From assembly GCA_046758985.1 (NCBI GenBank), contig JBHIBI010000001.1, positions 1 to 24,794 of the forward strand: a DNA stretch of 24,794 nt, in the 5' to 3' direction. How positions within the stretch are numbered: the stretch's first letter is position 1; the number at the start of each line of letters is the position of its first letter. The notes beneath the pieces are model-generated. The model saw only the letters and a program-made list of their open reading frames with translations. It did no database searches and had not been told where the DNA came from. Made by a program: the position numbers and the translations under genes. Positions 10,850 through 15,212 of this stretch are shown one piece after another. This stretch comes from Dehalococcoidia bacterium. Lineage in GTDB: Bacteria; Chloroflexota; Dehalococcoidia; Lucifugimonadales; JBHIBI01.

Positions 10850-11521
10850 CTACTTGATGGCCTTCAGACAGAGCCGGGAAGTGGGAGGGTACAGGAAGGG
10901 ACCCAGGCGCAGGGGCTCCACCACGGCGAACCCAGCCTGGCGCACCACCTCGGCCACCTTCGAGCTGGGCCGGAGGTACTCGGCGGTGACCTCAAGAGCC
11001 AAGATACGGTGGAAGAGCCGGGTCAGGAGATTCGTAGGAAGGGGAAGGAATTCCCAGAGGGCCAGTCTACCCCCCGGCCGTAGGACCCGCCGCGCCTCGG
11101 TGAATAAGTGGTACAGGTCTGGGAGGGCAAAATGCTTCACTACATAGGAGCAGAGGACCACGTCAAAGCTATCGTCGCCAAAGGGTAGATGGGTAACGCT
11201 GGCCTGCAAAAGGTTCACCCTGGGGTTGGTGTGGTCTGCCAGGGCAAGCAACGGCCTGCAGGCATCTACCCCTACCGGCCCCTGGGTGAGCCCCACCCGG
11301 TGGATCAGGTAGGAGAGGACGCTGGCCCTTCCGCAACCCACATCCAGCACCTGGTCATCGGGATAGAGGGGCAAACGGCGGCTCAGGCGAAAGAGGGGGG
11401 TATGCAGCAGAGGCAGTCCCCAAGGCGAGAGGACGAACCGCATGTGGCGGGCGTAGAGGCTATCTTTCGCCAGCCACCTGTTGTACTGTATAATAGTAGC
11501 CCGCTCTTCCGACTCTTGCAT
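10850..11521 (-). CDS. Class I SAM-dependent methyltransferase (type 11, UbiE-like)
   Basis: VLDVGCG, LPFGDDSFDVVLC, RRVLRPGGRL. Confidence 0.88.
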   Translation of the reverse strand: MQESEERATIIQYNRWLAKDSLYARHMRFVLSPWGLPLLHTPLFRLSRRLPLYPDDQVLDVGCGRASVLSYLIHRVGLTQGPVGVDACRPLLALADHTNPRVNLLQASVTHLPFGDDSFDVVLCSYVVKHFALPDLYHLFTEARRVLRPGGRLALWEFLPLPTNLLTRLFHRILALEVTAEYLRPSSKVAEVVRQAGFAVVEPLRLGPFLYPPTSRLCLKAIK

Positions 11522-11650
11522 CTGTTGAAGGAGGCCTCCTGGGCCCGGCTGTACGTGGCCGCACTACTCTAGTATATTGGTTGCCAATCGGCAAGAAGAG
11601 ATGCGCAGGCCCGTTGGATTTGCCCACACTGCTCTCGCATAGGGGGACAC

Positions 11651-12040
11651 ATGACGGAGAAGTACCAGCGAGAGATCGAGGAGATCCTGGAGAAGACCAC
11701 CGAGCCTGCGCCGCGGGAGACTTTTAAGGGCCGGGGGGGCGCTCCTCGGAGACGGGTGACCATCCCCCTGGGATGGCTCTTCGCCGGGAAAAAGTGGAGC
11801 ATCTCCCCGGGCAAACTGTTCCTGGCCAGTGTGCTCCTGCTTCTGGCGGCCCTGGTGATCAACTCCACTACGGCGAGGATCGTGGGGCCGCTGGTCTGGA
11901 TAGCGGTCTTCCTCTTCATCGCCGCCTACGCTATGTTCTTCATCCGGCCCGGCATCAAGTATGAGAAGCGATGGCGCGGGCGGCCTCTGGAGGAGTCCCT
12001 CTCTCTCTGGGACCGGGTCAAGAAGTGGCTCAGAGGCTAG
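11651..12040 (+). CDS. Hypothetical two-TM membrane protein
   Basis: SD AGGGGG; MTEKYQREIEEILEK amphipathic start, two hydrophobic helices, basic KRWRGR tail; GC3-biased codons. Confidence 0.8.
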   Translation: MTEKYQREIEEILEKTTEPAPRETFKGRGGAPRRRVTIPLGWLFAGKKWSISPGKLFLASVLLLLAALVINSTTARIVGPLVWIAVFLFIAAYAMFFIRPGIKYEKRWRGRPLEESLSLWDRVKKWLRG

Positions 12041-12182: not shown

Positions 12183-13997
12183 CTAGACGGCACACTCGCC
12201 CTCGCCCCGCTCCAACTTATAGAGGACACTCTTACCCCAGTCCATGTAGAGGTCAAGGGTGTCCCTATTCAGTGGTGCCACCTCACGGAAGGGGCTCAGC
12301 ACCCCCTCAAAGGCCTTGACCCCCACCCGGTCAACGAACTGGTTGAAGGGCTCGCCCTCCTGGCGGTTCTCCTGGTAGAAGGAGAGGATGCTCTTCACTG
12401 CCCCAGGTATCCGCTTGGCGGGCACCTTCACTCGGGGCAGGCGCTCTCCGTAGCGGGTGCTCTCGAAGTCCTCATATGCACCACCCAGGAACAGCTCGTA
12501 GGCGGGGACCTGGTTCCCGCTCCCCCCCTTCATGGCCGCGCCGTGGAAGCCGATGTTGGCCACGTGGTGCCGGCTGCAGCCGTTGGGGCAGCCGCTGATC
12601 TTGATGTGCAGGGAGTTGATCAGCGGGTCCTCCAGCGCCCCGTTCATGGAGGCGAGGGACTCCCGCAGGGCACTGCCCAGGCCCATGGAGGAGGTGATAC
12701 CCAGCTTGCAGCTATCGGTGCCGGGGCAGGCCACCACATCGGTGATGGAATGAGCCTCAGCCTCCCCCAAACCCATTTCCTGAAGGGCCTGCCAGACATC
12801 GTAGAGTCGCTCATCCTGCACCCAGCGGAAGGCCAGGTTCTGCTCGTCGGTGATGCGGGCCTGGCCCGAGGCGTAGTTCCGGGCCAGGTTGGCCAGAGAG
12901 CAGAACTGGTGGTACTGAACGTCGCCCAGGGGGAGCTTCACGAAGACCACGTTGTAGCCCCGCTGCCGTTGCTTCCATACGTTGGTGGCCTTCCACAGCT
13001 CGAACTCCTGGGAACGGTGGTGGCCATTGGAGGACCCACCACCTACTGGCACCGTCTCCAGCACCTCCAGCCACTCCAGCCCCTCCATGTAGGGCGTGGG
13101 GTCAATGGGTGGGATCTTCGCCAGCTCCTCCTGGATCATCCCCTTCACCGTGTCCCAGCCCAGCTTGTCGATGAGCACCTTGATGCGGGCCATCATCTTG
13201 TTCTTGCGGAGCATATCAGCGTTGCTGAAGACGGTGAGCACCGCCTGGGCCACCCGCAGGAAGTCCTCCACGGGAACAAACTCGGTCAAGGTGTAGGCCA
13301 GGCGGGGCATGATGGAGGTGGCGCCACCCACGGCGACCCGGAAGCCCTTGCGCAGGACCCCGTTCACCTCCTGGACCCGGGCAGTGAAGCTGAGGTCGTG
13401 CATCCGGGCAGCCACGCAGTCGCAGACGCCGGGGGAGAAGGCCGTCTTGAATTTGCGGGGCATGGCCTGGGTCAGGGGATTGCGGACACAGAACCGGGCG
13501 TAGGCCGCCAGATAGGGGGTGAGGTCAAAGGGCTCACCCGGGAGCACCCCCACCATGGGGCAAGCTGAGATGTTGCGAACAGTGTTGCCGCCGGCCTCCC
13601 GGGTGGTGAGACCCACGGGGCCCAGGAGCCGCATAGCCTCGGCGGCGCTTTCCAGGCTTAGATGGTGAAACTGGAAGTTCTCCCGGGTGGTCACGTGGCC
13701 CTTCCTCAGCGGGGCGTACCTCTCCGCCAGTTCCCCCAGGGCTTGGAGCATGTCGGCGGTGAGGATGCCACCGGGGACCTTCACCCGGAACATCTGGCGG
13801 TCGGGCTGGCGCTGGCCATACACGCCCTGCTTAAGCCGAAAGGCCTGAAAGGCCACCTCATCCCGCTCCCCGGCGCGGAAGGCCTGCACCTCGGCCTCGA
13901 AGAGGTCCACCTCCTCCGGCAGGTAGGGAATGATCCCCGGCGTGTGGCCATTGCTCTTCGCGCCGTTACCAGGAGCCTGTAAGGACCCCTGCGCCAT
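12183..13997 (-). CDS. Ferredoxin-type siroheme/[4Fe-4S] sulfite (or nitrite) reductase, probably assimilatory sulfite reductase
   Basis: Start MAQGSLQ at 13997 (SD GGAGG); RLKQGVYGQRQ, TTRENFQFH, PRKFKTAFS, Cys ligands ACPGTDSC (Cx5C) and ISGCPNGC (Cx3C). The Cys-codon leader peptide upstream favours sulfite over nitrite. Confidence 0.88.
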   Translation of the reverse strand: MAQGSLQAPGNGAKSNGHTPGIIPYLPEEVDLFEAEVQAFRAGERDEVAFQAFRLKQGVYGQRQPDRQMFRVKVPGGILTADMLQALGELAERYAPLRKGHVTTRENFQFHHLSLESAAEAMRLLGPVGLTTREAGGNTVRNISACPMVGVLPGEPFDLTPYLAAYARFCVRNPLTQAMPRKFKTAFSPGVCDCVAARMHDLSFTARVQEVNGVLRKGFRVAVGGATSIMPRLAYTLTEFVPVEDFLRVAQAVLTVFSNADMLRKNKMMARIKVLIDKLGWDTVKGMIQEELAKIPPIDPTPYMEGLEWLEVLETVPVGGGSSNGHHRSQEFELWKATNVWKQRQRGYNVVFVKLPLGDVQYHQFCSLANLARNYASGQARITDEQNLAFRWVQDERLYDVWQALQEMGLGEAEAHSITDVVACPGTDSCKLGITSSMGLGSALRESLASMNGALEDPLINSLHIKISGCPNGCSRHHVANIGFHGAAMKGGSGNQVPAYELFLGGAYEDFESTRYGERLPRVKVPAKRIPGAVKSILSFYQENRQEGEPFNQFVDRVGVKAFEGVLSPFREVAPLNRDTLDLYMDWGKSVLYKLERGEGECAV

Positions 13998-14020
13998 ATC
14001 TCCAACCTCCATTCGGACAT

Positions 14021-14065
14021 AAAATGAAGCGCCCCTCACCGGGTTCACCTTGCCGGGAGGGGCGC
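14021..14065 (-). terminator. Attenuator terminator (3:4 helix) in the reductase leader
   Basis: Minus strand GCGCCCCTC-ccgg-caaggtgaac-ccggt-GAGGGGCGC followed by TTCATTTTAT, 23 nt before the reductase start codon. Confidence 0.75.
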
Positions 14066-14098
14066 CGTGCTCTCGACCGCTAAAAGCTACGCGTCCCC

Positions 14099-14146
14099 CT
14101 ATGTCAGGGGACAACAGTAGCAGCAGACCAACATGCTCTTTCGCAT
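14099..14146 (-). CDS. Cys-rich attenuator leader peptide MRKSMLVCCYCCPLT
   Basis: atg cga aag agc atg ttg gtc tgc tgc tac tgt tgt ccc ctg aca tag; begins 9 nt after the -10 box; followed by alternative helices and a terminator. Confidence 0.8.
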   Translation of the reverse strand: MRKSMLVCCYCCPLT

Positions 14147-14155
14147 AGCAAGCAA

Positions 14156-14184
14156 AGTATATCGTCTTTCTCAACAATTGTCAA
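14156..14184 (-). promoter_or_regulatory. Near-consensus sigma70 promoter for leader plus reductase
   Basis: Minus strand TTGACA (14184-14179), 17 nt, TATACT (14161-14156). Confidence 0.85.
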
Positions 14185-14219
14185 TGCCTTTTGCACGTTG
14201 GTGAAGATTGCATCCCCGC

Positions 14220-14228
14220 TGCTATAAT
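14220..14228 (+). promoter_or_regulatory. Extended -10 promoter (divergent)
   Basis: TGCTATAAT 33 nt upstream of the ATG at 14262. Confidence 0.65.
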
Positions 14229-14261
14229 GGGAGCGACCTTGCGAAGCGAGGTGGTGTCTCC

Positions 14262-14425
14262 ATGGCCCGAGGTGCGCAACGGCAGTTCGTGAAGTATGAC
14301 CTCTATGCCGTGGACCCCAGTGGCGCCGGCTTGCTCACAGCGAGCGGCAACGGGCCAAGGACCAGTTCCTGACGGTGGAGGAGTTCTCCCCCCAGATGAG
14401 CATCCAGAGCTATAGCCAGGGCTAG
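14262..14425 (+). pseudogene. Frameshifted, truncated chlorite dismutase / coproheme decarboxylase (HemQ/ChdC)-family gene
   Basis: MARGAQRQFVKYDLYAVDP, frameshift in the C-run at 14315-14318, then [34 protein letters not shown]-stop. Matches the family N-terminal pattern 'QFVxY..F.VDP.WRRL...R...K.EF..VVEEF...M.I.SYS' (recognition from memory). Confidence 0.72.
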
Positions 14426-14594
14426 CCGGCCTTACGCCAGCCGAGGAGGGGGTTGCTGCCTGCCGAAAGCAATCCAGAGGAGGGCGCACATCGTATACCT
14501 TAGTGGAGTCGAGAGTGCCACCCCAAAGAGCCGTGGGAGCGGCCGCCAAGCGTATCAGGAGTTGGGACCGCATCATTCCGCTAGGAGGCGTCGT

Positions 14595-15212
14595 ATGAAG
14601 GGGCTGGCCCTTATCCCGCTCTCCATCCTGTTGCTGCTAGCAGCGGCCGCCTGCGCCGCCGCCACACCCACTCCCACGCCAACGCCTACGTTAACACCAG
14701 CAAGTGGGATCGCTGCAACACCCACGCCAACGCCGGCGGGTATGATGGAGCCAACACCAACCCCTACAGCCACGCCAACGCCGCCTCCAACGAACATGAC
14801 GCCAGAGCCGACGCCGTCGCCTTCCACCCCGAGACCAACCCCTACCTCCACCCCCACCCCAGGGCCAACCATGGTGCAGATCAGCGTCTCCGCCCAAGAC
14901 GTGTTTTTCGTTCCCGCTACCCTAGATTTCGGGCCCGGTGACACCGTTGACTTTACCGTGACCAACGATGGTGGCCTCCCCCACACCTTCACCATCGCCC
15001 TGGCCAGCGACCAGAAGGACACGGTGTTCATCGACCTATCGCTGAGCCCCGGGGAGACCATAACTGGGCAGCTCACCATGCCCCAGGAGGTCACTTCCCT
15101 CTACCTCTTCTGCCGGTTCCATGAGGCCGCCGGGATGGTGGGGACGGTCAACGTCGGCACCCCTCCCGCGGAGGGTACCCCACCTCCATCAACCCCCGAC
15201 TACTATTATTGA
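14595..15212 (+). CDS. Cupredoxin (type-1 copper) lipoprotein with long Pro/Thr linker
   Basis: SD TAGGAGG; lipobox AAAAC; PT repeats; ligands NDGGLPHTF (His) and [14 protein letters not shown] (Cys-x2-His-x4-Met). Confidence 0.88.
14664..14865 (+). repeat. Low-complexity Pro/Thr coding repeat (ACN-CCN)n
   Basis: Encodes [12 protein letters not shown]...TPTPTPGP; imperfect 6-nt periodicity. Confidence 0.8.

Follow-up and report, generated by a model that had tools for sequence, protein, structure and literature searches.

A 24,794-nucleotide stretch of the genome of an uncultured SAR202/Dehalococcoidia-type bacterium of the phylum Chloroflexota (GenBank assembly GCA_046758985.1, contig JBHIBI010000001.1, positions 1 to 24,794; hereafter the window) carries, upstream of a gene for a sirohaem-dependent reductase, a short cysteine-rich open reading frame (ORF) followed by alternative RNA hairpins. 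We conclude that this element is very probably a ribosome-mediated transcription attenuator that lies on a leaderless mRNA, senses Cys-tRNA(Cys) and governs the expression of an assimilatory sulfite reductase. The evidence lies in a short leader ORF that is enriched in Cys codons and appears to be translated, in a predicted terminator between this ORF and the gene and, in the window and its subfamily, in an antiterminator that excludes the terminator when a ribosome is placed as if stalled at the Cys codons. The targets also belong to the cysteine pathway: an NIR_SIR reductase, presumed to act on sulfite, in the window, and ThiF and PALP proteins in relatives. A first-pass annotation of the window had proposed the promoter, ATG, Cys-codon short ORF, RNA segments 1 to 4, terminator and Shine-Dalgarno (SD) sequence of the reductase, and all of these are present where it placed them.

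Architecture of the leader

All leader coordinates refer to the minus strand of the window. The -35 hexamer TTGACA (14184-14179), which is perfect in 60 of 63 related leaders, and the -10 hexamer TATACT (14161-14156) are separated by a 17-nt spacer and make up a sigma-70 promoter with 11 of 12 consensus matches. This is the only promoter-like site that a promoter scan returned between 13500 and 14700, where shuffled sequences yield 0.2. The leader ORF, MRKSMLVCCYCCPLT (14146-14099), comprises 15 codons and a UAG stop; its ATG at 14146 lies 9 nt past the -10 hexamer and has no SD sequence. From this promoter geometry, the 5' end of the transcript would fall at the leader ATG or within about 3 nt of it, making the mRNA leaderless. 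Four of the 15 codons encode Cys (codons 8, 9, 11 and 12, UGC UGC (UAC) UGU UGU, 14125-14111), arranged as pairs at 14125-14120 and 14116-14111, and these are the putative regulatory codons.

The end of the ORF overlaps the first of a set of mutually exclusive helices. Segment 1 (GUCCCCU, 14112-14106) can pair with segment 2 (AGGGGGAC, 14100-14093), which begins inside the UAG stop codon. In its wider form (AGGGGGACGC, 14100-14091), segment 2 pairs with either segment 1 or segment 3 (GCGCCCCU, 14065-14058), and the UAGGG that it contains is nearly invariant across the family. Segment 3 is both the antiterminator partner of segment 2 and the base of the 5' arm of the terminator. The 1:2 hairpin was first drawn from its core pairing (14112-14106 with 14100-14093); this core stands, but the hairpin is longer than proposed, covering 14121-14086 (-19.8 kcal/mol), with the stop codon at the junction of loop and 3' arm and Cys codons 11 and 12 within the 5' arm. 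A counterpart of this helix is kept in relatives. The terminator hairpin 3:4 (14066-14028) has 14 pairs, a 10-nt loop and a predicted energy of -27.9 kcal/mol, and runs into the U-rich tract UUCAUUUUAU (14028-14019). The SD sequence of the reductase, GGAGG (14010-14006), follows 8 nt before the reductase ATG at 13997. Because of the 10-nt loop, a simple terminator scan misses 3:4 and picks the 1:2 hairpin; a separate scan of our own detects 3:4. The simple scan scored the 1:2 hairpin (14113-14086) and the CGUAGCUUUU that follows it as terminator-like, and by analogy with the 1:2 hairpin of trp, the two may form a pause site at which RNA polymerase falls into step with the ribosome.

In the mechanism that we propose, transcription would start at or beside the ATG of the leader ORF, as the promoter geometry suggests, and a 70S ribosome would translate the leader close behind RNA polymerase. 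When Cys-tRNA is ample, the ribosome would reach the UAG and cover segment 2, or the 1:2 hairpin would form after its release; segments 3 and 4 would then fold as the terminator and transcription would end near 14021, ahead of the reductase. When Cys-tRNA is low, the ribosome would stall when codon 9, 11 or 12 (Cys) occupies its A site, covering segment 1 and leaving segment 2 free. Segment 2 would pair with segment 3 as the latter emerges, no terminator would form and polymerase would enter the reductase gene. Several parts of this scheme are inferred: where transcription starts, that the leader is translated, that ribosome and polymerase are coupled, how efficient termination is, that the switch responds to cysteine and that sulfite is the substrate.

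Cys-rich leader ORFs precede orthologous reductase genes

We collected the regions upstream of reductase orthologues (47-63% identity) from 30 family-level relatives within the same order, and added a further 80 orthologues from public genomes labelled Dehalococcoidia, SAR202 cluster or Chloroflexota. Among 100 distinct upstream regions, 76 contain a perfect TTGACA-N16-18-TAnnnT promoter with an ATG or GTG 6-12 nt on that opens a closed ORF, the ORFs in this test being defined without reference to Cys. These promoter-proximal ORFs are 6-30 codons long (median 16), 61 of the 76 encode at least two Cys, and Cys accounts for 15.4% of their codons as compared with 1.1% in the long ORFs of the host genome. 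ORFs with at least three Cys in seven residues are present in 10 of the 30 sense leaders but in none of 30 antisense, and dinucleotide shuffles give 0.9 +/- 1.0 (maximum 4). The ORF frame of 63 leaders holds 194 TGY triplets and the other two frames hold 42 and 6, a count that is partly circular in that the frames had been picked for Cys. The arrangement of the Cys codons varies by subfamily (CC.CC, C.C.C, C.C, CCC, CC.C.C), and Cys itself is retained.

The ATG lies 8-10 nt past the -10 hexamer in 47 of 63 leaders, a fixed distance that leads us to expect the start site at or beside the ATG and that agrees with the initial description of the leader as near-leaderless. The last Cys codon lies 3-6 codons ahead of the stop in 53 of 62 leaders, and an intrinsic terminator is found in 63 distinct leaders, mostly 24-42 nt past the stop codon. 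In one subfamily, the position of the stop is fixed while the codon itself switches among TAG, TAA and TGA, and variable sites in the same subfamily are commonest at third codon positions; both patterns point to translation of the leader ORF. Judged by these comparisons, the Cys-rich leader ORF is not a chance ORF. Cys-codon short ORFs, leaderless-type promoter geometry and the terminator are kept across dozens of species-level genomes, as expected if the attenuator first proposed from a single sequence is real.

The leaders also differ in several particulars. Many leader ORFs end in Pro-stop or Pro-Pro-Thr-stop, nearly always with UAG followed by GGG; these endings may be a by-product of the C-richness of segment 1; alternatively, they may delay termination and so keep the ribosome on segment 2. 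In a subfamily with 22-codon leaders, MLKVNGNPCASCCTCICYIGIR, (L054, L057-L059, L061, L066, L095, L104, L106 and L109; leaders at about 2260-2400), the near-invariant AUAGGG is read in frame as Ile-Gly and the stop comes three codons further on, so the motif is kept in the RNA whatever its role in coding. The relatives that are closest in reductase sequence have a leader peptide of the form MR(F/L)EDDLF(H/R)LC(T)(R/C)P.. (L032-L037 type). One further leader, L031 (about 2230-2330), has a one-base difference from these that puts the ATG out of frame with LCTRPPG-stop and gives a peptide without Cys; this could reflect an assembly indel or a decaying attenuator. In L002 (G029:C17), the reductase orthologue directly follows a gene whose product has a uroporphyrinogen-III methyltransferase-like C-terminus (sirohaem synthesis), with no leader between the two, and the reductase itself starts with MCKVCGCSVE, a Cys-rich N-terminal extension.

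Covariation of the predicted attenuator helices

We checked the helices for covariation in a MAFFT alignment of 17 sequences of the window's subfamily that was not fitted to the structure. Terminator 3:4 is 98% paired in these relatives, with three pairs changed on both sides, and the lower part of helix 1:2 is conserved. The antiterminator takes the form GGGnnCAGG : CCUGnGCCC, the counterpart of AGGGGGACGC : GCGCCCCU in the window; it is 81% paired, as against 24-67% when the partner is slid, and one pair changes from G-C to U-A. A second subfamily, with peptides ending in CxCMNDH, has helices 1:2 and 3:4 that are 90.5% paired with five doubly changed pairs.

Broader comparisons were less informative. 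RNAalifold found no structure in a 62-sequence MAFFT alignment, in which the variable spacers were misaligned, and a naive search for column pairs in the same alignment was equally uninformative; we therefore relied on subfamily alignments and a covariance model. Duplex energies of segments 2 and 3 were modest in comparison with shuffles (mean z of -0.9). Two causes limit this signal: G-rich shuffles go on pairing with the C-rich arms, and anchoring on the stop codon is wrong for the 22-codon subfamily.

Folding of the leader with and without a ribosome

The minimum free energy (MFE) fold of the leader RNA (14150-13990) holds both 1:2 and 3:4, with z = -3.25 relative to 200 dinucleotide shuffles. 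We folded the nascent transcript with 28 nt covered by a ribosome. When Cys9, Cys11 or Cys12 occupies the A site and segment 4 has yet to be transcribed, the 2:3 antiterminator (-19.7 kcal/mol) is the MFE structure. If the ribosome is placed at the stop codon, or left out, the leader RNA of the window folds into 1:2 and 3:4. The predicted 1:2 / 2:3 / 3:4 layout is borne out by this switch between 2:3 and 1:2 plus 3:4. The spacing of the Cys codons fits: as the last Cys lies 3-6 codons before the stop, a stalled ribosome would cover segment 1 and not segment 2, and a ribosome at the stop would cover segment 2.

The same behaviour can be expressed as the probability that the base of the terminator 5' arm is sequestered by upstream RNA. 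For the leader in the window, the values are 0.02 (ribosome-free), 0.51-0.81 (stalled at a Cys codon) and 0.12 (at the stop); the corresponding means over 62 leaders are 0.47, 0.52-0.57 and 0.32. The contrast between stalled and stop positions across the 62 leaders is clear (0.52 versus 0.32).

The same leader precedes a second type of cysteine-pathway operon

A covariance model (R1) was built from 17 relatives of the window's subfamily with the window left out. In the 24.8-kb window it returns a single match, at 14021-14121 on the minus strand (E = 5e-5), and this is also its sole match across the whole host genome. Only 4 of 120 genomes of the order were matched, as the model is too subfamily-specific. 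R1 nevertheless revealed the same leader in front of operons for ThiF (MoeB-like) and PALP (cysteine synthase-like) proteins in two relatives, with the leader peptides MSCKAYCFCTCPHK and MRDFRSDIYSICTCPHTQGAG; one of these two genomes has no match to the reductase. That two different operons of the cysteine pathway share this leader is the strongest reason to regard cysteine as the signal and sulfite as the substrate of the reductase.

The putatively regulated gene and its genome

The reductase gene (13997-12183, minus strand) encodes 604 aa with Pfam NIR_SIR and NIR_SIR_ferr domains, typical of sirohaem/[4Fe-4S] enzymes of the NirA/Sir type. Its top NCBIfam match is 'NirA family protein', under the cut-off of that model. 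The nearest solved structure is Mycobacterium tuberculosis NirA (1zj8), which is a ferredoxin-dependent sulfite reductase (Schnell et al. 2005). From these resemblances we infer that the enzyme is an assimilatory ferredoxin-dependent sulfite reductase, specific for sulfite over nitrite, and the attenuator leader supports naming this NirA-like enzyme a sulfite reductase.

Upstream of the leader lies a divergent gene on the plus strand (14562-15212) for a cupredoxin-like protein of the plastocyanin/azurin kind, with a signal-peptide-like N-terminus and a long Pro/Thr-rich linker. Since this neighbour is divergent, the leader sits in a genuine promoter-bearing intergenic region. Downstream of the reductase, a 116-aa ORF (11569-11919, minus strand) matches no family of Pfam or NCBIfam. 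As no terminator was detected from the reductase to an S-adenosylmethionine (SAM)-methyltransferase gene (10850-11521), the regulated transcript may extend past the reductase gene.

The host genome is metagenome-assembled (1.5 Mb, 65% G+C, 82% complete) and carries two cysK/M genes. Its moeB-like-cysM operon has upstream only the terminator of the preceding gene and no leader. C254, a candidate for a second Cys leader in this genome, was rejected as it is located inside a 543-aa ORF. No adenosine 5'-phosphosulfate (APS) or 3'-phosphoadenosine 5'-phosphosulfate (PAPS) reductase (PF01507) was found in the 82%-complete assembly; sulfite could come from a source other than sulfate reduction, or the gene could fall in an assembly gap.

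Evidence that weighs against a Cys-tRNA attenuator

A number of observations do not fit this interpretation easily, and we give them together here. The promoter-ORF pattern is missing from 24 of the 100 upstream regions. The relatives closest by reductase sequence have leaders with only one or two Cys codons, and several other relatives have a single one. Across the 62 leaders, stalled and ribosome-free folds are not distinct in the sequestration of the terminator arm (0.52 versus 0.47, p 0.11), and as these leaders are related, the p-values overstate the differences. At -19.7 kcal/mol, the antiterminator is less stable than the terminator at -27.9 kcal/mol, so the switch must be kinetic. The U tract, UUCAUUUUAU, is broken by CA and is weaker than in most relatives. 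In the second subfamily, the 2:3 helix as drawn consists of a GGGG:CCCC core only and gives no covariation signal. Covariation, by which the first-pass annotation had suggested that its helices be judged, thus upholds the terminator, and the antiterminator in the window's subfamily, but not the antiterminator in the second subfamily; on these alignments we regard 2:3 as established in the window's lineage and elsewhere as only plausible.

Other adverse points concern the gene and the genome. The reductase scores under every NCBIfam cut-off, so the assignment of its substrate stays predicted. In the 82%-complete host genome, neither a strict scan for promoters with leaderless ORFs nor the covariance model found a second Cys leader, and none is present upstream of either cysK/M gene.

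Alternative explanations

Three other accounts of the element deserve consideration. The one that survives best keeps the dependence on translation and gives up the specificity for Cys: the attenuator would respond to general translation capacity, to coupling, to some other limitation or to nascent-peptide arrest, and the Cys codons would follow in part from the sequence of the C/G-rich helices (CCUGU/ACAGG, CCCC/GGGG). One Cys codon (UGU) does fall inside the conserved CCUGU arm of helix 1:2, where RNA structure alone could fix it, and some clades keep one Cys codon yet conserve other residues, as in MR(F/L)EDDLF(H/R)LC. Pro-stop is a slow-termination context, and its frequency at the ends of the leaders would also suit a signal other than Cys. 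We nevertheless consider this account unlikely. The number and spacing of the Cys codons shift between subfamilies while Cys persists, at 15% of codons in ORFs chosen blind to Cys, the TGY triplets are strongly frame-specific, and the targets belong to the cysteine pathway in every case seen.

The terminator might instead be under an RNA switch that needs no translation, whether a riboswitch or a leader bound by a protein, with the short ORF being incidental. The strong conservation of AUAGGG and CCUGU at the nucleotide level is what such a switch would predict, as is the reading of UAGGG through as Ile-Gly in the 22-codon subfamily. Set against this, an incidental ORF would hardly have its ATG 8-10 nt past the -10 hexamer in 47 of 63 leaders, end after about 16 codons in 76 of the 100 regions, or hold its stop in place through TAG/TAA/TGA exchange. 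Moreover, an Rfam scan of 13000-15000 on both strands returned no match at E <= 1, whether to leaders, riboswitches or T-boxes, and besides the attenuator helices no conserved multi-helix aptamer-like core was seen. This explanation is, in our estimate, a little less probable still.

The least probable of the three, and one to which we give very little credence, is that the ORF encodes a functional Cys-rich micropeptide (metal- or redox-binding, or a precursor) and that the hairpin only insulates the reductase or ends the ORF transcript: although peptides are conserved within clades, with a slight excess of variation at third positions, between clades they are unrelated except for Cys and differ in length (6 to 30 codons), neighbouring genes include none for modification or export, the helices that the ORF overlaps are mutually exclusive and placed as in attenuators, and the promoter scan found no separate reductase promoter between terminator and SD. 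Finally, translational control by occlusion of the SD was rejected at this locus, where the SD (14010-14006) lies beyond the terminator and is unpaired with the Cys tract in any fold.

Relation to known attenuators

Classical leader-peptide transcription attenuators include trpL, hisL, leuL, thrL, pheL and ilvL of E. coli and Salmonella (Yanofsky 1981). Like the trpL/hisL class, the element in the window has an ORF rich in codons for the end product and overlapping helices 1:2, 2:3 and 3:4, of which 3:4 is an intrinsic terminator; its regulatory codons lie 3-6 before the stop, such that a stalled ribosome masks segment 1 only, and its target belongs to the pathway whose product is sensed. It departs from that class in its proposed sensing of cysteine, in lacking an SD and a 5' untranslated region, with its ATG at the predicted transcription start, in its occurrence in Chloroflexota and in having as target a single sulfite reductase gene, where the classical targets are long operons. 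The two share no sequence homology.

Several Cys-codon leaders have been described in other bacteria. In mycobacteria, polycysteine leaderless short ORFs (Ms5788A, Rv2334A and others) act at the level of translation, through pairing of the Cys tract with the SD of the following gene, and lack a terminator (Canestrari et al. 2020, 10.1101/834739). Both they and the present element are leaderless short ORFs with a C-terminal Cys cluster that precede cysteine-related genes and would sense Cys-tRNA by stalling. In the window, however, a strong intrinsic terminator separates the ORF from the gene, the SD is about 90 nt away, the two are unrelated in sequence, and in all folds the Cys tract pairs within hairpin 1:2 and not with the reductase SD. 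The element in the window works differently from the mycobacterial polycysteine ORFs and is not a member of their family. Another parallel is the uORFC-8-2 motif upstream of cysS in Rhodobacterales, a predicted attenuator with conserved Cys codons in an upstream ORF (uORF) and a terminator stem with a U run (Brewer et al. 2021, PMC8632094). Both are predicted ribosome-mediated attenuators with a Cys-codon uORF and a terminator; that motif, however, is alphaproteobacterial, acts on Cys-tRNA synthetase, carries its two Cys codons in tandem (positions 14-15), has not been reported to be leaderless and is unrelated as RNA. In Actinobacteria, candidate Cys leader peptides were noted before cys/cbs operons; a search there yielded no terminator, and the authors proposed that Rho is involved (Seliverstov et al. 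2005, PMC1262725). Those candidates share with the present leaders short ORFs and runs of Cys codons near the stop; the leaders described here differ in having a canonical, conserved intrinsic terminator.

Our full-text literature searches turned up no account of elements of this kind from Chloroflexota or SAR202. As far as these searches show, the novelty suggested in the first-pass annotation holds for Chloroflexota; it is narrower in general, given the Cys attenuators of mycobacteria and the one predicted before cysS in Rhodobacterales.

Significance

To our knowledge, cysteine was long without any known leader-peptide attenuator. If the element works as predicted, classical attenuation would reach another phylum, Chloroflexota, and another amino acid, in the form of a conserved Cys attenuator that is based on a terminator and lies on a leaderless mRNA. 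As the principle is a textbook one and the element is predicted from sequence, we expect it to be a moderate surprise to specialists. It would provide a concrete regulatory feature, at present unannotated, for the annotation of SAR202/Dehalococcoidia genomes, as well as a compact Cys-responsive part.

SAR202/Dehalococcoidia are among the most abundant bacterial groups of the deep ocean. A broader proposal, which we advance tentatively and hold with rather less than even confidence, is that these leaders constitute a lineage-wide leaderless Cys-tRNA attenuator regulon that acts as the main controller of sulfur assimilation in SAR202/Dehalococcoidia, replacing a regulator of the CysB/CymR type. 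Its targets would be sulfite reductase and ThiF/MoeB-CysM, and where no APS/PAPS reductase is found, it might gate the use of sulfite derived from organosulfur compounds.

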